Assembly: GCA_021498095.1 (NCBI GenBank)
Contig: JAIZWK010000001.1
Span: forward strand, 2,744,810 to 2,808,809
DNA: 64,000 nt
DNA from: Candidatus Harpocratesius repetitus
GTDB taxonomy: Archaea; Asgardarchaeota; Lokiarchaeia; Sigyniarchaeales; Promethearchaeaceae
Reading direction: 5' to 3'
Shown: piece by piece, positions 11,436 to 64,000 of the stretch
Position numbering within the stretch: position 1 is the stretch's first letter
Layout of the letters: every line of letters starts with the position of its first letter
Notes under the pieces: generated by a model
Seen by the model: the letters and a program-made list of their open reading frames with translations, nothing else
What the model was told of the DNA's origin: nothing
The model's database searches: none
Translations under genes and position numbers: made by a program

Positions 11436-11692
11436 CAACAAATTATTATATCTCTTATGACCACAATTCTGATTTCTATGAACTTCAAATCAACTAAGCA
11501 AATACATATTGGATATGAATTAGATATTTCACTTTTTGACATTAAAAAATACCATCGAAATTACCTTCAAAAGATTATTTGAATGGATTATTTATATACA
11601 AAAAAGGGCAAATATTCCCAATTGGATTCAACCTGCAATACATTTTAAAAACGGCGGAAGAAAATACTTTAGTTATGAAGTTTCGCAAGCTT

Positions 11693-12019
11693 TCAATAAT
11701 CCAAATTTTCAAAATAACTTCCTGCCCATATTCCAATAATAATTGCAAAGTCACCGTACCGATCTAAAGTAGAATCCAAAAATGCGCCAAATTTTGTTGG
11801 ACCTTGTAATCTTGCTATAATACCATCTAATTGGTCAAAGAATTCAATAAAAAGAAGTGCAATAATTGTAATTATTAGATTATTTAAATAATATCCAATC
11901 CCTGTAATGATTGAAAATAAGCAGCTCATAATTGTAAAATAATTTGCAGGAATTTTTTGGAATTTTCTACCAATTGGAGAGAGGAGTTTGCTCGAATACC
12001 GTTTCATTTGAAAAAGCAT
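11693..12019 (-). pseudogene. CDP-alcohol phosphatidyltransferase family gene, apparently truncated after the catalytic motif
   Basis: The motif DQLDGIIARLQGPTKFGAFLDSTLDRYGD matches D-x2-DG-x2-AR-x8-G-x3-D-x3-D exactly. The ORF is only 108 aa and stops 18 aa after the motif, whereas family members usually carry 2-3 more TM helices. There is an upstream in-frame stop 9 codons before the ATG. Confidence 0.4.
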
Positions 12020-12110
12020 AGAATAATCAACTAAATTTATTTTATTTTATATTAAAAAAACTTGAAAATTTTGAAAATTTAATTAATAAAAAAAGGATTC
12101 AATTAAATGA

Positions 12111-12419
12111 GGGTATTTTAAATTTCAAAGATTCGAATTTTCTCATTTCATCATCTTAATTCTCCCGACTCAAATCTAAAATATCCTTCCTTATTTTTTG
12201 TCGATTTTATCGACGTACCAAATTCAAGGTATGAAAATCAATAATTTTAATAAAATCGACTTCAGATTGAAGAATTTATAAACAGGATGGTATATTTTTA
12301 ACAAATTCTTTGAAAAAATCGAGTTCGACAAAAAAAGAATTGCGATATTTCAAATTTAAGTCGGATATATGTAAATGATATTCAAAAAAGCGTTTAAATT
12401 AAAAAAGATAAAACATCCT
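12111..12419. repeat. Copy A of a ~309-bp noncoding repeat; inverted partner at 54661-54969
   Basis: By manual alignment to the reverse complement of 54661-54969, about 89% of positions are identical with no large indels. There is a perfectly conserved 40-bp core TTGAAAAAATCGAGTTCGACAAAAAAAGAATTGCGATATTTCA. No ORF spans it. Confidence 0.8.
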
Positions 12420-12456
12420 CAAATAAATAATTCAATTTTTATTTTGATTAAAAGAA

Positions 12457-12872
12457 TTAAACATTTTCACCAAAAATCTGTATATAGATTTTTCTTGCAC
12501 GAGGTCCATCAAATTCACAGAAAAATATACCTTGCCAAGATCCAAGGACTAATTCACCATTTTCAATTGGAATATCTAGGGAACTACCAAATAAAGTGGA
12601 TTTAAAATGAGCATCTGAGTTTCCTTCAACATTTAGTAATTGTTTGTGAGGAATAAGTGGCTGTAAAATTGTTTTTATATCACGTAACACGTCGGGGTTT
12701 GCATTCTGAATAATAGAAACAGAAGCAGTAGTATGAGGACAAAAAATCTTTGCAAATCCTGTTTTAACATTGGTTTTTTTTAAAATCTTTTTTATTTTTT
12801 GAGTTATTTGAACAAATTCTTCACGTCTGTTTGTTTTTAAGGAAAAATTATATGTTTCTAAAAACGTTTTCT
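12457..12872 (-). pseudogene. YjbQ/UPF0047-family gene with an apparent 5' frameshift
   Basis: The family signature is present (PHTTASVSIIQNANPDV...DAHFKSTLFGSSLDIPIENGELVLGSWQGIFFCEFDGPRARK). The homologous frame extends upstream of the listed GTG start (12690) through KTFLETYNFSLKTNRREEFVQITQKIKKIL. It then has no ATG/GTG/TTG start. A candidate ATG GAG GCT AAA GAA AAC (12872-12855) sits in the +1 frame and terminates after 11 codons. This is consistent with a 1-nt indel in the AAAGAAAAC run. Confidence 0.45.
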
Positions 12873-13146
12873 TTAGCCTCCATTATTTTTTCACAAGAAC
12901 ATTTCGGCATATAACTTTAAAAATTTTCCAAATACAACGGGAAACAAGCTAATGAAAGCTTCATAAAAGAAAAATATAATCCTTTTTGTAAAGTTATCTA
13001 TAATGCGGGAAAACTTTGCTATAACTTCTCAATAAACTTAAATTAATATAAATAATTAAAATTCGACTGGACTTTGATTCTTGATTACTCTCATCCGAAA
13101 ACATTTAAGATAAAGATGTTTGATTTATATATATTAAAAGAAATAT

Positions 13147-28416: not shown

Positions 28417-29814
28417 ATGAGGTTTGAAAATATGACTTCAATGTCTACATCATCACTATCAATTGTTTCTTTTATTGGAATTCCATTATATCTTATCAAT
28501 TATGTTATTTCTTCATACTCACGAACACTTAGATGGCTGATATCGGCTCATCAAGTTTTAAAAGTATTATATCTAATTTCATTTTATATAGTTTCTACTG
28601 TCTCAATAATTTATTTAATTATGGGTATTATTGCATATTTTAAGCCAAAAATAGTTAGTAGATCATTGCCTTATGGTGATGAACCTTTTGTTACAATCCA
28701 AATACCCACATATAACGAATTGGCAGCAATTAATTGTGCTCGATGTTGCTTAAATTTTGATTATCCTCGTGATAAAATGCAAATTATAATTGGTGATGAT
28801 AGTAATGATCCATCAATTTCTGCCCAGATTGATGAATTTGCAGCAAAATATCCTGAAATTATAATGGTTACTAGAAGAGGTAATAATATTGGCTTTAAAC
28901 CTGGAAATTTAAATCATATGTTGAAATATACTAAAGGAGAATTTATTGCAATTTTTGATTCAGATTTTCTTCCACCTCGTGATTTTCTCCGTAAAGCAAT
29001 GCAACCTTTTCAAGGAAATCCCGATCTTGCTGCAGTTCAAGCTCGATGGCATATTACAAATTTATCACAAAATGTTTTCAGTCTATTAGGCGGTATAACT
29101 TCTTATGTTACGCACCATATTGCGATTCCGTTTATGCAAAAAATAGGAGGTAGCGCCTTTTTATGCGGTTCTGCTCATGTTACACGAAAATCACACATTG
29201 AAATGATTGGAAATTGGCGTGTTGGTGCATTAACTGAAGACATTGAAGCAAGTTTAGAATTAATAAAACGAGGCAAAAGAATAACTTATTTAGAGGATGT
29301 TTTAGTTGATTGTGAAGCACCTTTTACTTTCAAAGATCTTCTTTTACAACAAAAACGTTGGGCATCAGGAAATATAACAGCATTTAAGAGGAATTTATTG
29401 AATGTATGGAAATCAAAGAAAATTACACTTAAAGAAAAAATAAGTGCATCTATTTTCAGTACCGGATATATCTATCCTTATTTCTTACTTTTTCTAAGTA
29501 TATGGGGTATTATTTCTCAAATTATTCCCAATCCAATCTCACCACCATTTAATTTATTAGCATTTATTCTAAGTACTATTGGTTCAATATTGTTGACTAG
29601 TGGTGCGTTAATCTCAAGTTCTATGGTTCTTATTAAAAAGAAACAAGGTAGATTAATCCCTAAATTAATAGGTGGCACTCTAACTGTAGGAATGGGTTTA
29701 TTAATTTATGTTAATATAGGTATTTATAGTGGACTTTTTAATCGAAAAATCCCATGGTACATGGTTCAAAAAAATGGTAATTCCTTAGTATCTTCTTCCG
29801 AGGTATCAAAATAA
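28417..29814 (+). CDS. Processive family-2 glycosyltransferase (cellulose/chitin-synthase-like)
   Basis: It has an N-terminal TM, DDS and DSD motifs, a Q-x-x-R-W motif (QQKRWASG) and C-terminal TM helices. Confidence 0.7.
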   Translation: MRFENMTSMSTSSLSIVSFIGIPLYLINYVISSYSRTLRWLISAHQVLKVLYLISFYIVSTVSIIYLIMGIIAYFKPKIVSRSLPYGDEPFVTIQIPTYNELAAINCARCCLNFDYPRDKMQIIIGDDSNDPSISAQIDEFAAKYPEIIMVTRRGNNIGFKPGNLNHMLKYTKGEFIAIFDSDFLPPRDFLRKAMQPFQGNPDLAAVQARWHITNLSQNVFSLLGGITSYVTHHIAIPFMQKIGGSAFLCGSAHVTRKSHIEMIGNWRVGALTEDIEASLELIKRGKRITYLEDVLVDCEAPFTFKDLLLQQKRWASGNITAFKRNLLNVWKSKKITLKEKISASIFSTGYIYPYFLLFLSIWGIISQIIPNPISPPFNLLAFILSTIGSILLTSGALISSSMVLIKKKQGRLIPKLIGGTLTVGMGLLIYVNIGIYSGLFNRKIPWYMVQKNGNSLVSSSEVSK

Positions 29815-49530: not shown

Positions 49531-49862
49531 AAATTGCTCATATAACTTATTTTCATAAAGAATATCTTAGAAAATCTAAAGAACGAACAGTTTTTAAAAG
49601 AATTGAGCCTATAGAATTTTTTAATTTTAAGTCAAATTTAGTAACCCCTTATAAATCAGTCGAAATTGGGAAAAATAGAATATACAAAAAATGAATTCCT
49701 ATATTTTTAAAGCACATGGTATAGTGGTTATTATAATTGATTTCCGTTCAAGATGTCTCCTGTTCAAACCAAAATGCATTTTTTAAAGAATCTGTAAATA
49801 CAGTTATAGATTCATTTGGAACTTCTTTAAATGCAACCCAACAATCATCACTGGTAGCAGAA

Positions 49863-50813
49863 TTACATTATCAATTCATAACCGCTTTTCAATTTAAACT
49901 TAGGCCGAAAGTTTTTTGCCCACCTTATATATTCTTCTCGCAGTTCTTTTTCTGGAATTTGCTCCGCAGCAATTAACGCATAGTCCATAAATTTAATCCG
50001 CTCTGCGGTCCACGTAGTTTCAAACCCGTATTCTTCAAAAAATAGCTTCTCCCACTCCTTATAACGCTCGATATTCTCCTGCTTTCGGGGATGGATGAAC
50101 GAATCAAAATCATACATAAATTCTTCGCTGTTTTCAAACTGGGTGCAGTCCCAGAACTCAATCGGTAGAAAGGAAATATGAGGTATGCGAGGAAGATTTG
50201 AAATGTTAATCCATAATTCAGGATTATGGGTGAATTCAATCGGAATCTCCTTAACTTCGCGCAAACTCCATAATTCCAATTTTTCTAATGAAATGCTGAA
50301 TGCCCAATTGATGGGAACCTGCTTCATGCGGTGTTTTCCATCATTTTTGGGCGGCAGCGTTATTTTTTCACCATCGAACATATTTTCATAACGCTCATTA
50401 TAAAAATCTTCACCGATTGAAATTTCCCGCAGGCGATAGCAGTGGGCGAAATCTATGTTGTAATCGTCTAAAACCGCAGCAGTAGTTTCAAATTTTTGCA
50501 AATATTGATATTGATCGCACTTTAGTGGAATTTTGATATTCGAAAATCTAGAAATGCGAATATATTCTATTTTCGGCGGCCATTTAACCACCCGCAGCTG
50601 ATTTTCTCCAGATATTACAATTTCTCTGCAGTTGATGAAGGCGGAAAAATCTGCTTCGTTATTGGGAAATATGCAGCTATATGCTTCTAATTTATATACT
50701 TTATCAACATCTTTCCAATTTTTAACATCAAAATCCTGCCTAACCAGTGTTAATACTAATTTATCATTATAAACATGGCTGTATCTCACATATTTTGGAT
50801 TTTCATTATGCAT
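49863..50813 (-). CDS. Hypothetical protein (possible LRR-like repeats), in GC-elevated island
   Basis: 316 aa. Its codon composition is notably GC-richer than neighbouring genes, and LEKLELWSLREVKEIPIEF...ISNLPRIPHISFLPIEF is LRR-like. Confidence 0.45.
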   Translation of the reverse strand: MHNENPKYVRYSHVYNDKLVLTLVRQDFDVKNWKDVDKVYKLEAYSCIFPNNEADFSAFINCREIVISGENQLRVVKWPPKIEYIRISRFSNIKIPLKCDQYQYLQKFETTAAVLDDYNIDFAHCYRLREISIGEDFYNERYENMFDGEKITLPPKNDGKHRMKQVPINWAFSISLEKLELWSLREVKEIPIEFTHNPELWINISNLPRIPHISFLPIEFWDCTQFENSEEFMYDFDSFIHPRKQENIERYKEWEKLFFEEYGFETTWTAERIKFMDYALIAAEQIPEKELREEYIRWAKNFRPKFKLKSGYELIM

Positions 50814-50919
50814 AATGCTTCATCCACTTTTTTTTTCCATTTACTTTTATTTTCTTATCCAATGTATATAAAAAAAAACGATATTAAAAAATTAACCCCC
50901 TCTTCGGCGAACTTATTTT

Positions 50920-53049
50920 TTATCCGATAAATCCCTCAATCGCATCCAAATATGCATCAAAATTATTCATGGCACTTTCATCCGCATACTCTTCGTAGTA
51001 TAAGCGCATCTCATTTTTGTATTTCAGATAGTATGCGAAACACTGCTTCAGCATCAGTAACTGCGAATTTGAATTGAAGATACTCACGGGATTTTCAATC
51101 TGAGCGTACCATTGGTCGAGTCGGGAGTCAAATTGAATGTTGCCGTTCTCATCCAAAGTGGGAACGAAGTATTCGATTGATTTATCTTTACTTATCTTAA
51201 TTGTTATGGTTTCACCTTTAACGCCGAATGCCTTGATGATGCCTTCAATTCGGTTCCATGTGGCAATGTATGCATTTCTATTACTACCATGGCTTGATTC
51301 CATCATCAACTTAATATCGTTGTAAAACCTTTTCTTTTTTAAATTTGAATCTTTCAAATCCTGCTCGGATGAATGCAGCGTATACTGTTCGTAAACCCAC
51401 CTTGCCAGCATGGATACGGAGTCTCGGATGCTGGAGCCTTGAAATTGTGCAAGATTGCGGAGGTTGAAAAAGGCACGACCGTCTTCAAGTTCAATCAGCA
51501 CCATTTTAGTGGCATCTCCACCAATTTTTTCTCCCATCATTTCAGTAAATTTATCCATACCTTTATGATTTTCAAATATGTTTATCATGGATAAGCCGTT
51601 CTGGAAGGTAGTCCACACCTTGCGCGATTTTTCTGTATAATATTCGATATTAGTATCTTCTACTCCGTGCATTCCCACGCCGTAAATACCGGGATACCGC
51701 CAATTAACCGCACTGCCGTCCGCTCCAATTAGGTTCAGCATATTCTCAAATACCAGAAAATCCATAACGAAGCGCTCAATCCCATTATTTATTTTGGGTT
51801 CGTTGGTTTTATAATATTCTTCATTCACCGGGTCCCACAAATCCATGGAAAACTGTGGAATTATCATGGAATAGGGCGAAGGTGTGGTAGGGACAATGTC
51901 TTTAACGGCATCTGAAATCGGGGTGCCGAGTTGGAAGAATTTAATTTTGTGTTCTTCATCATTTTGAATTTGACCGACCATACTTCCGAAAACCAACACT
52001 TCTCTTCCCGAACCGATCATTTCACTTTTAGCCATTCCGAATTGTATGAAATTTGCAATAAATGCATTTTTTTTGGCACCTATTATTATGATTGGGTCGG
52101 GGAGGGCGCTGGGGGGCACATAGTAGTGATGATCATCGACTACTTTTTCGCTGAGATAGTTTTTAACTCTATCTTGATCTGGAGATTCTAATTTATTTTG
52201 AACAAGATAATCGATAGTTGAGCGAAATGCTTCGATATTGGTAAAAAGGGATGCCAAAGAAATCCAAGCTGCCTGCATCAGCTCCCATTCGTGAATTTGG
52301 GATGAAGAAAGCAAAGAACCAATACTATACAATTTTGATTCTTTAATAAATTGTAAATATTCGCTGTATCCAAGTCTTTTCTGCAAAAACTGGGTCAAAT
52401 AATCAGCAGCACCTCCAGGATTAACTGCAATTTTCTTATCTGTAAAACCTCCTGCATCTTGGGAAATTTCACTGATTTTATATAAAATATATTCAATTTG
52501 ATTAATTACTCCATTATTCCATCTTAATGTATGATCCTTTTTTTTACGGACAGTCCGCCAGTATTTATGAGTCTTATCCGCGTCAAACAATTCTTTTATT
52601 TCGCTGATATATTGTAAATCATCTAAGGACTCATCGAAAAAGTGCTCTCTTAATTCTGTGCCGGCGCCGGGAAGGTCTTTATCCAAAGCGTTAAAATCAA
52701 AAAATAAGTCTCTAAGCTGCTCTGCAATATCGGGAACATTCTTATAAATATTTTTTAATGTGCTTCTAATGATTTGTAAACCAAATTTATAATTCCATGC
52801 ATTTGCGTTTTTTCCATTTTTATAATATTTTCTTATACCAGCTATATGGTTTTTTGCAATTTTTTGAAAAGCAAATGAAAGCAGCCGAATTTCAAATATT
52901 CCTTTCCGCCAATTTATATTAGTATATAAAGGAGTTGATTCACCCTCTAAGCTTTTTGCACTTTCCACCTTATTATTTATCAAAATACGAACTGTTTGAG
53001 ATTTTGGATATTCAAGTTGTATACGATTGCATAGGTAAAAATGATTCAA
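50920..53049 (-). CDS. Hypothetical 709-aa protein, in GC-elevated island
   Basis: It is a long, clean ORF with no motif I can assign. Local GC is about 43-45% versus about 30% elsewhere. Confidence 0.45.
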   Translation of the reverse strand: MNHFYLCNRIQLEYPKSQTVRILINNKVESAKSLEGESTPLYTNINWRKGIFEIRLLSFAFQKIAKNHIAGIRKYYKNGKNANAWNYKFGLQIIRSTLKNIYKNVPDIAEQLRDLFFDFNALDKDLPGAGTELREHFFDESLDDLQYISEIKELFDADKTHKYWRTVRKKKDHTLRWNNGVINQIEYILYKISEISQDAGGFTDKKIAVNPGGAADYLTQFLQKRLGYSEYLQFIKESKLYSIGSLLSSSQIHEWELMQAAWISLASLFTNIEAFRSTIDYLVQNKLESPDQDRVKNYLSEKVVDDHHYYVPPSALPDPIIIIGAKKNAFIANFIQFGMAKSEMIGSGREVLVFGSMVGQIQNDEEHKIKFFQLGTPISDAVKDIVPTTPSPYSMIIPQFSMDLWDPVNEEYYKTNEPKINNGIERFVMDFLVFENMLNLIGADGSAVNWRYPGIYGVGMHGVEDTNIEYYTEKSRKVWTTFQNGLSMINIFENHKGMDKFTEMMGEKIGGDATKMVLIELEDGRAFFNLRNLAQFQGSSIRDSVSMLARWVYEQYTLHSSEQDLKDSNLKKKRFYNDIKLMMESSHGSNRNAYIATWNRIEGIIKAFGVKGETITIKISKDKSIEYFVPTLDENGNIQFDSRLDQWYAQIENPVSIFNSNSQLLMLKQCFAYYLKYKNEMRLYYEEYADESAMNNFDAYLDAIEGFIG

Positions 53050-53237
53050 AATTCTTAACTAAATTAAAGATGAGTTGTTATTTTCAAAGATTAAATTTTG
53101 ATTTGTCTATTTCTTTTTCCAGTTATATTACAAAAAGATCATAATGTTAAATATTTACGATGATAAAACATATAATTATTAAGAATCACATAAATATTTT
53201 TTATTATTTATGAATAATTTGAAGGAGAAACTAAAAA

Positions 53238-53516
53238 ATGAACGATCAAATACCTCCAGCAACAAATGAAAAATGGCAAGCTCTAATTCTTGGACTAGAT
53301 TACAAAAATTTTGAGTTCTTTCCTGTAAAATTGCTTTTAGCTAGATTGCAATTGAAAGTAAAACAAGATCCAAGCGAAGAAAATGTTTTACAATGTTCTA
53401 AAGAATTAAGACAATTATTTGTGAAAAATCAGCACATTCCTAAAGCGAAAAGGGATCTAGATAAAATTTTCAAAAAGAAATTTAATTTCAAAAGATTTTT
53501 AAGAAGGAGAAGATAA
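53238..53516 (+). CDS. Small hypothetical protein with basic C-terminus
   Basis: 92 aa ending FLRRRR. Its 3' end runs into the tandem repeat. Confidence 0.3.
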   Translation: MNDQIPPATNEKWQALILGLDYKNFEFFPVKLLLARLQLKVKQDPSEENVLQCSKELRQLFVKNQHIPKAKRDLDKIFKKKFNFKRFLRRRR

Positions 53517-53612
53517 AGAAAAAGAAGATAAAGAAGGAGAAGATAAAGAAAAAGAAGATAAAGAAGGAGAAGATAAAGAAAAAGAAGATAAAGAAGGAGA
53601 AGATAAAAAATG
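53505..53612. repeat. 30-bp tandem repeat (AAAGAAGATAAAGAAGGAGAAGATAAAGAA) x about 3.6, with a 15-bp sub-period
   Basis: Seen directly. Each unit contains an AGGAG Shine-Dalgarno-like core. The array ends at the ATG of the 53610 gene. Confidence 0.85.
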
Positions 53613-54632
53613 ACAGAAATAAAGATGAATAATCAATTAATGACACTCGAACAGACAAATTTGCTTATTGAGAGTGGAAAATTTTTGATGATAGCAGGAG
53701 ATGAAAAACTTCTATTGCAATTAAAAAAAGGTAACTGGATTGCAGGAACAATACCATACTTCATGGATGTTAATGGTGGTGTTTCTACAAGAGATGAATG
53801 TTTTGTCACCGTGTTACCTGATTTTATTCTTGATTTAGAAATAAAAACATATGATAAAGATGATATTAAAAATGTTTTCGTCGATAGTAAAGATAATGGA
53901 ATTAATTTTATTATTATTCCTGCAATGAGTGAAGTTCATTTCAACTTTGCTTTAAATGCTCCGATTTTTAAAAATTTTGGATATAATCCTTTAATTGGAT
54001 GGATTGCCGGAGTTCATTTGGATGATATTAATAATACAACGGCAAAAACCGCAACTGGATTAACTGGAGAACTTAAGAATGAATACGCAGTTGTAATTCA
54101 TGGATCACTTCCTGATACAAAATATGCTGAGATAGATATTGTAAATATTTTTACCCAAGGCTCAGGAGATGAAATTCAATTTTTAGAAGACAGTTTCAAG
54201 GTTAAAGATGCTTTAATAAATGGTAAGAAGCAAAATTTTGCAGAATATCTCAAAAAAATTAATCATGATACCCGATTTCCATTGGTTGCAGATTACATGG
54301 GTGTAATGATAAATATCAGTTATCAATCAATAGATGAAGATAACATGGAAGTAAATTTTTATGCTCCTGTATTTAAAGGACAGATATATAAAAATGCTGA
54401 AAAATTAGAAGATTATGTCTCAAAATTTGAACATGAAATGCCTAAAGAAGATATAAATTATATTACTTTTAGTTGTAATTGTATTTTAAATTATCTTTAT
54501 TCAGAATTAGAAGGAAAGAAAACAGAGGGAATTACTGGGCCTATAACATTTGGTGAAATAGGATACCAACTTTTGAATCAAACTTTAGTTTATATTACAA
54601 TAAAAGATTACACAGATGAAGAATTGAAATAA
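53610..54632 (+). CDS. Hypothetical protein
   Basis: 340-aa ORF with no motif I can assign (LMIAGDEKLL...GNWIAGTIPYFMDVNGG). Confidence 0.45.
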   Translation: MTEIKMNNQLMTLEQTNLLIESGKFLMIAGDEKLLLQLKKGNWIAGTIPYFMDVNGGVSTRDECFVTVLPDFILDLEIKTYDKDDIKNVFVDSKDNGINFIIIPAMSEVHFNFALNAPIFKNFGYNPLIGWIAGVHLDDINNTTAKTATGLTGELKNEYAVVIHGSLPDTKYAEIDIVNIFTQGSGDEIQFLEDSFKVKDALINGKKQNFAEYLKKINHDTRFPLVADYMGVMINISYQSIDEDNMEVNFYAPVFKGQIYKNAEKLEDYVSKFEHEMPKEDINYITFSCNCILNYLYSELEGKKTEGITGPITFGEIGYQLLNQTLVYITIKDYTDEELK

Positions 54633-54660
54633 GTAATTCTGAATTCAGACTTTAAAATTG

Positions 54661-54969
54661 AGGATATTTTATTTTTTTTAATTTAAACGCTTTTTTGAAT
54701 ATCAATTATATATATCCGACTTAATTCTGAAATATCGCAATTCTTTTTTTGTCGAACTCGATTTTTTCAAAAAATTTATTAAAAATTTACCATAATGTTT
54801 ATAAATTCTTCAATTTGATGTTGACTTTATCATAATTTTTGAATTACATATCTTGAATTTGGCAACTTAGTAAAATCGACAAAAAATAAGGAAGGATATA
54901 TTAGAATTGAGTCGGAAGAATTAAAATGATATAATGAAAAAATTCGAATTTTTGAAATTTAAAATACCC
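54661..54969. repeat. Copy B of the ~309-bp noncoding repeat, inverted relative to 12111-12419
   Basis: Its reverse complement aligns to 12111-12419 at about 89% identity, with an identical 40-bp core. Confidence 0.8.
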
Positions 54970-55004
54970 TTAATTTAAAATTTAAAATTTAGAATTTAGA
55001 AGAA

Positions 55005-61611: not shown

Positions 61612-64000
61612 TCATGTCTTTTGGAGATATTGTCGTAAGTTTTCTATTAAATATTATCCCATTGATTGTACTACTTTTTCCTATTCCATTTCTAAAGCGA
61701 AAATCGGCTAAAAGATCATTTTATTTGCGATTTTATTATGGTTTGTGTTTTTTCTTTGCAGTATATTGGTTTCTACCTGCTCTCCTTCAGTTGGAAATCA
61801 AATCATTATCAATAGAGGATTCACAATTAAAGCAACCCAGTTTAATTGCCTTATATTTAGTTGTTCGATTCTTTAGCTTAATTACTTCATACGCTCAATA
61901 TCCATTTATCCTTTTACCTCTTATTTTTGTTTTTTCTCCATTTGTATCATTATTGATTCTTTATCTAAGAATTAGAAAGGAGAAAAAAAATGATAATTTA
62001 GATATTTTTCAAGAAATCCACTATGAATACATGACATCCCCTAAAGAAATGATAAAAAGAGCCCTTCGTAAAAATGACTGGTCAAAAGAAAAGGAAATGT
62101 TCAAAGCATTTTTGATTATTATGCCAATTGCGATATATCTCCTAGCAGTAGTATTAGATATTTCAGGTTTAGAGCCAGTAAATTTGAATAAAAGCACTAC
62201 TGCCATCGGAATGTTAATAGAAATATTTTTCGTCTATATTGCCACCTTTTTATATGGATATCAACTAATAAAGGCATCGAAACTCTCATTTCGCGGAAAA
62301 TTTATAGGTGAGCAAATAGAAGCGCGATTCTTTTCCAGTTTAAAACAAGTAGGAACCCCAATTGCAATCTTAAGTATTATTCTATTCATTTTACAGAAAA
62401 CAGACAGTATACTCCTATTTATCTACATTTTTGGATATTTCTTAATGGCTGCATTTATTTTCATTCTTTTTTTACGTATTTTTGAACCAATAAGCATTTT
62501 AATTTTATTAAAAATAATCAATGCAAGAAAATGGAAACAGATTGGAAAATTTAAGCACTGGATTCGAGCAATTAAAGAAAAAAGAGAAAGTTCAGAAAAT
62601 GAAGAAAGTTCAGAAAATGAAGAAAGTTCAGAAAATGAAGAAAGTTCAGAAAATGAAGAGTCATTAGATCAAAATTTAACATCTACATTATCAGAAACAC
62701 AATCTAATTCATCGGATCTCTCTTTACGAAATATAATTTCATCCAAATACCAAAATACTCAACATCAATCAAAATATCTAATTATCATCGTATTGTATGG
62801 AATTATTGCCGCTTCTCTTAGTGTAATTGTATTCTTCATAATCTCTTATATTGGATATCTATTTACTCCTTACCTTCCCTCTGGTTCGGATATTACTGTT
62901 CTCTCAGCTGCAAGTGCCAATCCAACTTATTTAGTTGCTTTAATTACCGAAATATCTGTTTCTTTACATTCTATAGAATTGATGTTTCGAGTAATCATTC
63001 TGTCATATTTTTTTAACTATGCTCTCCGCACTAAATTGCATAACGCAACTGTTATTTTAATATATGGAGGAACTTTGTTAGCATTGACAATTGTTTGTTC
63101 AATTTTACTTAGTTCTCCTTTAATAATTCCTTTAAGTTTCTCTGAAGAAACGAGTTGGTTGACCGGTGTGCCGGTTACAATTGAAGATGTATCTTTTTCG
63201 TTTGTTACTGTTAGGACAGGATTTTTAACCGCTAGTTTTTCAGGAAATATGGTTCTACGTGGTTTAACAATTCCTTTTTATATCTTTAGCCCATTTTCCA
63301 CTTTTATCTTATGGGGATATTTATTTTGTTTTGGTAATAAGCAATTTATGGTGAAATCATTTGATAAACAGCATAAATATGTTGAAAGAACAACTTTCTC
63401 GATAGTTTCATCTGAAAATATCACCGATCTTCCAACATTTTTCAATATTCACCCTGGAGCTTTGATTATGAGAGAAAATGGGCAAAATTTATCTGAATTT
63501 GAATATAATCTTCCAGAATGGAATGAAATAGCATCAAAACTAATGGAAAAGGGAGAAATAAAATTATCTGAAATAACTGAATCTACATTAACTGATGAAC
63601 GATTTGAAGCATGGTTAAAACATGAAGTTAAATTAAAACATATATCAATTTGGATACCAGAATTTTCTTGCATTTTTGAACGCGCTCAGATTGATTCTGT
63701 TTATATTTTATATCAAGATGGTAGAAATTTATTTTTCCATCGATTTCAAGCCCTTCAAACTGAAAAAGAGAAAGCCAGAGAAAAATTTGCTCCTTCATTA
63801 GTATCAGGAATGTTTTCAGCAATCACAAGTTTCGTTAAAGAGGTGACCAATTCTGCAGATTTATTACGCAGTATTGATTCTGGAGATAAAAAAGTGCTCT
63901 TGGAATACAGCCAAAGTCTTCCGATTTTTGGTGCCATCTTTGCTGATAGAGAAACAGGACAGGTACGAAGAGCTTTAAAAGATTTTCTTACACGCTTTGG
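61612..64000 (+). CDS. Polytopic membrane protein (at least 796 aa, continues past window end) with an (ESSENE)x4 acidic repeat and a Roadblock/LC7-like C-terminal domain
   Basis: I translated from the ATG at 61612 and found no stop before 64000. It has at least 10 hydrophobic helices and an 18-bp x4 repeat encoding SSENEE. The C-terminal region (IDSVYILYQDGRNLFFHRF...LVSGMFSAITSFVKEV...KKVLLEYSQSLPIFGAIFADRETGQVRRAL) matches the roadblock pattern. It is absent from the supplied ORF track. Confidence 0.6.
62586..62660. repeat. 18-bp tandem repeat (GAAAGTTCAGAAAATGAA) x4 inside the CDS
   Basis: Seen directly. Confidence 0.85.

Follow-up and report, generated by a model that had tools for sequence, protein, structure and literature searches.

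Why should a non-coding sequence of about 309 bp occur twice, in inverted orientation and 42 kb apart, in the genome of an Asgard archaeon? The host, Ca. Harpocratesius repetitus FW102, is known from a two-contig Nanopore assembly and was named for the 4% of its genome that is repetitive; the genome paper counts the repeats without dissecting them and does not mention MITEs (PMC8813620). The pair was noticed in a 64,000-nt stretch of this genome (the window), and the preliminary description left three readings of it side by side: a structured ncRNA gene present in two copies, a MITE-like element, and a recombination substrate. Our analysis sustains the MITE-like reading and not the other two. 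The two copies, designated A and B, most probably represent a non-coding, MITE-type DNA transposon that is non-autonomous.

The two copies are 88.5% identical over 321 nt (blastn within the window, E=2e-99), far from the drop below 70% over less than 100 bp that the preliminary description had named as the outcome that would discredit the pair. A repeat finder placed the arms at 12105-12422 and 54658-54975 (318 nt, 88% complementary) and returned no other long inverted pair in the 64 kb. The MAFFT alignment of 12105-12422 with the reverse complement of 54658-54975 is gapless, and over its 318 nt A and B differ by 37 mismatches (21 transitions and 16 transversions) and no indels, in close agreement with the hand count of about 35 mismatches, about 89% identity and no large indels. 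The greater divergence reported for the centre was borne out as well, the middle third holding 20 of the 37 mismatches. The 40-bp perfect core fared less well. It does lie inside an exact run of 44 nt, the longest between A and B, but a run of at least that length has P about 0.11 when 37 mismatches are placed at random; it therefore needs no special explanation, and the core was dismissed as a special site.

Refinement of the boundaries gave an element of 312 nt in each copy (Table 1), with a G+C content of about 21-26% and runs of T5-T8 on both strands. The element begins and ends with terminal inverted repeats (TIRs) of 12 nt, GAGGGTATTTTA at the left and, read inverted, GAGGATATTTTA at the right, which agree in 11 of their 12 nucleotides (10 in copy A). 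The left end starts with AAGGG in B, and the inverted right end reads GAGGATGTTTTA in A. These termini are the best conserved stretch of the alignment of copies. A search of the window with the pattern TTGAGGRTATTTTA, allowing at most one mismatch, matched the four element ends and nothing else, with 0.23 matches expected by chance. The claim that neither copy contains an ORF stands: none longer than 35 aa is present inside A or B, and none is common to the element copies.

Table 1. Positions in the window of the two element copies, their terminal inverted repeats and the short direct repeats that flank them (TSD, target-site duplication).
Feature	Position	Strand	Remarks
Copy A, MITE-like element	12109..12420	+	Orientation 'p', GAGGGTATTTTA...TAAAACATCCTC; aligned to B, L004, L005, L019 and others
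Flanking direct repeat AAAT, left of A (putative TSD)	12105..12108		
Flanking direct repeat AAAT, right of A (putative TSD)	12421..12424		
Left TIR of A, GAGGGTATTTTA	12109..12120	+	Invariant or nearly so in 9/9 aligned copies
Right TIR of A, minus-strand reading GAGGATGTTTTA	12409..12420	-	
Copy B	54660..54971	-	Inverted relative to A; 88.5% identical, indel-free
Flanking AATT of B (putative TSD)	54656..54659		
Flanking AATT of B (putative TSD)	54972..54975		
TIR of B, GAGGATATTTTA on the plus strand	54660..54671	+	
TIR of B, minus-strand reading AAGGGTATTTTA	54960..54971	-	

A and B are members of a dispersed repeat family and not a feature of two copies; every copy has its own gene surroundings. 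A third copy on the window's own contig lies at the start of L033/L034, where it adjoins a ParB_N gene, so that this contig carries the element at no fewer than three loci. When genomes, one for each species, were scanned with a portion of the core, two loci emerged in the MAG CAYRPF01, a related member of the Promethearchaeia. One of these, L004, holds a full copy that is 91.8% identical to A; the other, L005, holds a copy from which 115 internal nucleotides are missing, with both ends kept and the deletion junction at an AATT. The metagenome scan with the left end gave a further full copy (L019), together with four contigs of one metagenome that end inside the element (L008, L010, L011 and L017), three of them with new left flanks. 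The related lineage and the metagenome thus contribute at least five distinct flanks (L004, L005, L008, L011 and L017). Ten other metagenome matches to the 20-mer were rejected as chance, as they are without the GAGGG terminus, and a profile search of the collected loci added no diverged copies. Logan short-read contigs that carry the flanking genes of the window (L022, L023, L024 and L032) end some 30-50 nt into the element. Separately, L019 (642-959) and L004 (3854-4171) match at 99.4% identity from the left flank to the end of the element, with the few mismatches confined to its right half; 4 bp beyond the right end the contigs diverge, and their right flanks differ. This pattern could reflect recombination between MITE copies or a chimera of the metagenome assembly.

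Orthologous sites with and without the element were found at three positions. The convergent genes for a 208-aa protein and a DUF6976 protein are separated by 372 nt at copy B in the window, and by 38 nt, with the element absent, in L025, which belongs to a sister Ca. Harpocratesius species (GCA_054039255.1, about 86-94% nucleotide identity to the window). At copy A, the genes for a CDP-alcohol phosphatidyltransferase and a YjbQ/UPF0047 protein stand 437 nt apart in the window, whereas six contigs from more distant relatives (L026-L031) keep the gene order without the element, the intergenic span being 63 nt in L027 and 39 nt in L030. The L004 site provides the reciprocal case. It is filled in L004, with 653 nt between convergent PAC2 and PfkB-kinase genes, and likewise in L036 and L038; it is empty in the window's own genome (181 nt, L033/L034) and in L040 (141 nt, L040/L041). 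These are comparisons of sites between conserved genes, the empty sites being too diverged or too low in complexity for base-by-base alignment to the filled ones. A search of other assemblies for a polymorphic, empty version of the L004 site met only filled sites or contigs ending inside the element. The MAG with the element at L004 and L005 is also the source of L027, and the emptiness of L027 at site A therefore shows that the insertions are lineage-specific and independent. The presence and absence of the element at the three orthologous sites is the decisive evidence.

The sequence immediately outside the TIRs is almost constant. Both flanks could be paired for five copies, and the 4-mers are AAAT/AAAT at A, AATT/AATT at B, L004 and L019, and AGTT/AATT at L005; in L008, L011, L017 and L033, of which the left side was read, the left flank is also AATT. 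AATT is palindromic, and hence for most copies a target-site duplication (TSD) is indistinguishable from an extension of the TIR by 4 nt. The flanks of A are more informative: the non-palindromic AAAT stands on both sides in direct and not inverted orientation, which favours a TSD over a TIR extension. At site B, removal of the element and one AATT restores a perfect tandem of three TAAATTT units. The case for duplication is made by these two observations, the AAAT pair at A and the restored tandem at B, and a 4-bp TSD is probable rather than proven. The preliminary description had anticipated that TIRs accompanied by TSDs would reduce the pair to an ordinary MITE. With the TIRs in place and the TSD probable, this is essentially what was found.

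Each of the eight readable insertions falls between genes or at the extreme 3' end of one, and in 7/8 a gene 3' end lies within about 40 nt of an element end. The different gene contexts described for the two copies were confirmed. Copy A, between the YjbQ stop and the phosphatidyltransferase start, is 36 nt downstream of the former and 89 nt upstream of the latter, both genes being encoded on the minus strand. Copy B is bounded by the convergent 3' ends of the DUF6976 and 208-aa protein genes, at 27 and 33 nt. The corresponding distance is 6 nt at L004, about 0-3 nt at L008 and 5 nt at L017, and for the L033 copy the stop codon of the neighbouring gene falls within the left TIR. The orientation of the element with respect to the nearest upstream gene is mixed among the copies. 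A preference for AATT as target, in which TAA-ATT overlaps stop codons, together with selection against insertions into genes, accounts for the siting near 3' ends. An origin of replication and a duplicated promoter (the latter already disfavoured in the preliminary description) were ruled out by the multiplicity of copies, the absence from orthologous sites, and the position of B between convergent 3' ends.

The genes beside copy A have peculiarities of their own. The CDP-alcohol phosphatidyltransferase gene (11436-12019) keeps only residues 1-105 of the 197-aa ortholog, and the window lacks the 302-aa gene by which it is separated from the 326-aa gene in L026-L030. In comparison with these relatives, the shortened gene and the missing one indicate a deletion beside the MITE insertion. 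On the other side, the UPF0047/YjbQ frame (12457-12873) has no in-frame ATG, GTG or TTG near the expected start. An ATG at 12873 sits one base out of frame, and the ortholog in L027 begins with TTG; a homopolymer error in the Nanopore-based assembly may explain the anomaly, as may an unusual start codon.

Several other features of the window were recorded. A 3.5-kb segment at 49637-53125, with ORFs at 49863-50813 (316 aa) and 50920-53049 (709 aa), stands in place of 419 nt in the sister species (L025, 12092-12510) and is, on this comparison, a lineage-specific insertion. Both ORFs drew a blank in Pfam, NCBIfam and PADLOC, and the segment showed no terminal repeats. Tandem repeats of short period occur at two places. 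At 62590-62660, an in-frame 18-nt unit, GAAAGTTCAGAAAATGAA, is repeated four times (SENEES-type) within a large ORF; about 102 nt are absent at this repeat from the ortholog in L025 (junction at about 4375), and the Logan contig L032 ends there. The other, at 53460-53640, has a period of 15 nt (similar to AAGAAGATAAAGAAG, 9 registers) and reaches from the last part of a 92-aa ORF into the beginning of the DUF6976 gene. Two adjacent paralogous family-2 glycosyltransferase genes (28417-29814 and 29835-31202), a tandem gene duplication, share a 143-nt direct repeat with 83% identity (28675-28817 and 30078-30220). The window also encodes small Ras/Arf GTPases and an EAP30/Vps36-like protein, which fits an Asgard genome.

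MITEs are defined as elements of 50-800 bp with TIRs of at least 10-15 bp and a TSD of 2-10 bp, and with the transposase absent (PMC11602168). The present element is 312 nt long and non-coding, has TIRs of 12 nt, exists in multiple dispersed copies in two lineages, and is mobile as judged from the three pairs of filled and empty sites; the 4-nt direct repeats and the deletion derivative L005, which keeps both ends, count for the same reading. In the mechanism that we infer, a transposase encoded elsewhere, most likely a DDE enzyme of an insertion sequence that makes 4-nt staggered cuts, would bind both ends of the element. Insertion would occur between genes, at AATT-like sites in AT-rich DNA and very often directly behind a stop codon, and would duplicate the 4-nt target, in which case the AATT would be duplicated target and not part of the element. 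The parent was sought in several ways. Neither an autonomous element with the same TIRs nor a transposase gene turned up in the window or the 41 loci examined, and the TIR pattern with up to three mismatches gave only MITE ends and chance matches across the window and all loci. Among the 30 proteins of the window, Pfam identified no transposase. The end and core patterns had no match in a collection of viral contigs, and blastn found none among phages and plasmids. The family is apparently undescribed: in the literature searched we found no description of MITEs from Lokiarchaeia/Promethearchaeia, and a search for the TIR sequence returned unrelated primers only.

One competitor proposed at the outset is a structured ncRNA gene that would encode a long hairpin RNA, occur in several copies and be transcribed from the T-rich strand of the element (the m strand, which is the minus strand at A and the plus strand at B). 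The propensity to fold is real. Alignment of each copy to its own reverse complement gives scores of 56 and 70 for the two copies, against 3.7 +/- 10 for shuffled sequences, and the interior of the element is an imperfect palindrome, the two arms of which show 62-69% complementarity across about 150 nt. Folding of the m strand is far stronger than that of its shuffles (z of -5.1 for A, -4.4 for B and -6.2 for L004; -1.9, -4.0 and -2.9 for the opposite strand), and in the consensus hairpin of four copies 96.8% of the cells stay paired. Yet a palindromic DNA element yields hairpin potential automatically, and the marks of a selected RNA did not appear. Compensatory change was seen in 1/95 predicted pairs, a comparison of low power with four full copies that are 88-98% identical. 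The covariation score of 0.060 was reached by 171/500 shuffles, and all measures by 171-242/500; neither strand gave a signal. The variability of paired columns, 12% vs 21% (p=0.04), is confounded, the structure having been derived from the same sequences, and G:U pairs are only slightly more frequent on the m strand (8-12 vs 5-8). No family in Rfam 15 reached its gathering score for the element or anywhere in the window, a relaxed Rfam search of the element gave only C/D-box noise (E>2), and a tRNA scan gave none. A C/D-box sRNA was considered and rejected: the motif GAUGAUGA occurs in one copy and is not kept in B, and there is no suitably placed D box. Moreover, the element is absent from orthologous sites in both close and distant relatives, L005 has lost one arm of the main stem while keeping both termini, and the orientation relative to the nearest upstream gene varies. 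The hairpin is a property of the palindromic DNA element and not evidence for a selected RNA. With no Rfam match, covariation, conserved ORF or orthologous retention, a dedicated ncRNA gene is unsupported, and we regard it as very unlikely. The MITE model does not itself require self-complementarity of this length.

A milder departure, compatible with the MITE explanation, is that the host has co-opted the element, either behind stop codons as a bidirectional transcription terminator or insulator or to supply dsRNA. Oligo-T terminates archaeal transcription, and the T runs on both strands resemble such termination signals; the proximity of gene 3' ends and the high identity of the element between lineages would also suit a function. 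The AATT preference and purifying selection explain the position after stop codons equally well, however, and the orthologous sites of relatives work without the element, so that co-option appears unlikely. IS200/IS605 elements are without terminal inverted repeats, and their left and right ends are distinct. A palindrome-associated transposable element (PATE) derived from this type would travel as single-stranded DNA under a Y1 (TnpA) transposase, which recognises hairpins and a tetranucleotide on the left flank. Such an origin would account for the hairpin-rich interior and for the near-constant AATT before the left end, and the present element resembles PATEs in being small, non-coding, hairpin-forming and multicopy. 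The abundance of potential parents also speaks for it, IS200/IS605 being reported as the most abundant and widespread archaeal IS family, the commonest one in Asgard genomes and present in more than 65% of them (PMC13343696). Against these points, the element is symmetric, with true inverted repeats at its very termini, and the 4-mer is the same on the right as on the left; at A, where the left reads AAAT, the right co-varies with it, as expected of a duplication and not of a one-sided target. Descent from IS200/IS605 is thus highly unlikely. The remaining proposal, that the inverted repeats are kept so that homologous recombination between them can invert the 42-kb segment, can draw on the inverted arrangement of two copies at 88% identity, and on L019 and L004, which share the left flank and left half and differ in the right half and right flank (unless one is an assembly chimera). 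Such recombination is possible in principle and is unrealised here: gene order across B is that of L025 and across A that of L026-L030, and this intact synteny means that the 42-kb segment has not been inverted at these repeats. The longest identical stretch, moreover, is only 44 nt, and the repeats belong to a dispersed family rather than forming a dedicated pair. We consider this role extremely unlikely, and the MITE explanation is the one that we carry forward.

Prokaryotic MITEs include the SM elements of Sulfolobus, the Correia elements of Neisseria, and MITEEc1 and other IS630-derived elements. In its 312-nt length, lack of coding capacity, 12-nt TIRs and 4-nt flanking direct repeats the present element is like them, as it is in being multicopy, intergenic, polymorphic in its insertions between related genomes, and able to fold into a long hairpin. 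It differs from prokaryotic MITEs generally in that its interior is an unusually long imperfect palindrome. Termini that start with GAG, with duplications of 2-4 bp, are typical of some IS5-family groups in the ISfinder tables. The GAG/GG termini of the element, its short putative TSD and its AT-rich palindromic target recall IS5-derived MITEs and their eukaryotic relatives, the PIF/Harbinger-Tourist group, a resemblance that serves only as a lead to the parent. Tourist elements duplicate the 3-bp TWA, whereas the element here has the 4-bp AATT, and the window and the loci examined yielded no IS5-type (DDE_Tnp_1) transposase with matching ends. From IS200/IS605 elements and PATEs it is set apart by having TIRs and matching 4-mers on both flanks.

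The distribution of the element bears on when and how it spread. Coding DNA flanking the insertions is 65-80% identical between the window and the CAYRPF/DRO88 organism (64% and 71% for orthologous proteins), while copies of the element are 88-92% identical between genomes at this distance and 90-92% identical between these two. Copy A is closer to L004 in another genome (91.8%) than to B in its own (88.4%). Such high identity, together with the empty orthologous sites, means that the insertions are much younger than the split of the lineages. We infer recent activity in both lineages as well as, probably, a horizontal transfer of the element family or its autonomous partner.

A further prospect concerns RNA. 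The Correia element is a hairpin repeat that is processed by RNase III at the RNA level, and in eukaryotes MITE-derived hairpin RNAs feed small-RNA pathways. A read-through transcript of the present element would likewise form an imperfect duplex, with about 95 predicted base pairs, although any likeness to these RNA-processed repeats is purely speculative. The host genus possesses HrAgo1, an RNA-guided RNA-cleaving Argonaute whose gene adjoins genes for an RNase III-dsRBD protein and a helicase (PMC11217426). One could imagine that dsRNA hairpins of the element are processed by the RNase III-dsRBD protein and the helicase into small guide RNAs for HrAgo1. The fold of the element and the identity of its host are what speaks for this, and we hold it to be highly improbable; were it true, it would amount to transposon-derived small-RNA silencing in an Asgard archaeon, analogous to the siRNAs made from MITEs and hairpins in eukaryotes. 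Only if hairpin transcripts feed the HrAgo1 pathway does a larger question open.

As a MITE, the element is ordinary biology, a genome parasite of an ordinary kind. Its description places a well-delimited element behind part of the 'repetitive' genome for which Ca. Harpocratesius was named. It also offers a practical marker of the points at which short-read assemblies of these genomes break. Its identity of about 90-92%, set against 65-80% at the nucleotide level in the surrounding genes, is a sign of recent activity and probably also of horizontal spread among the Promethearchaeia of hydrothermal sediments.
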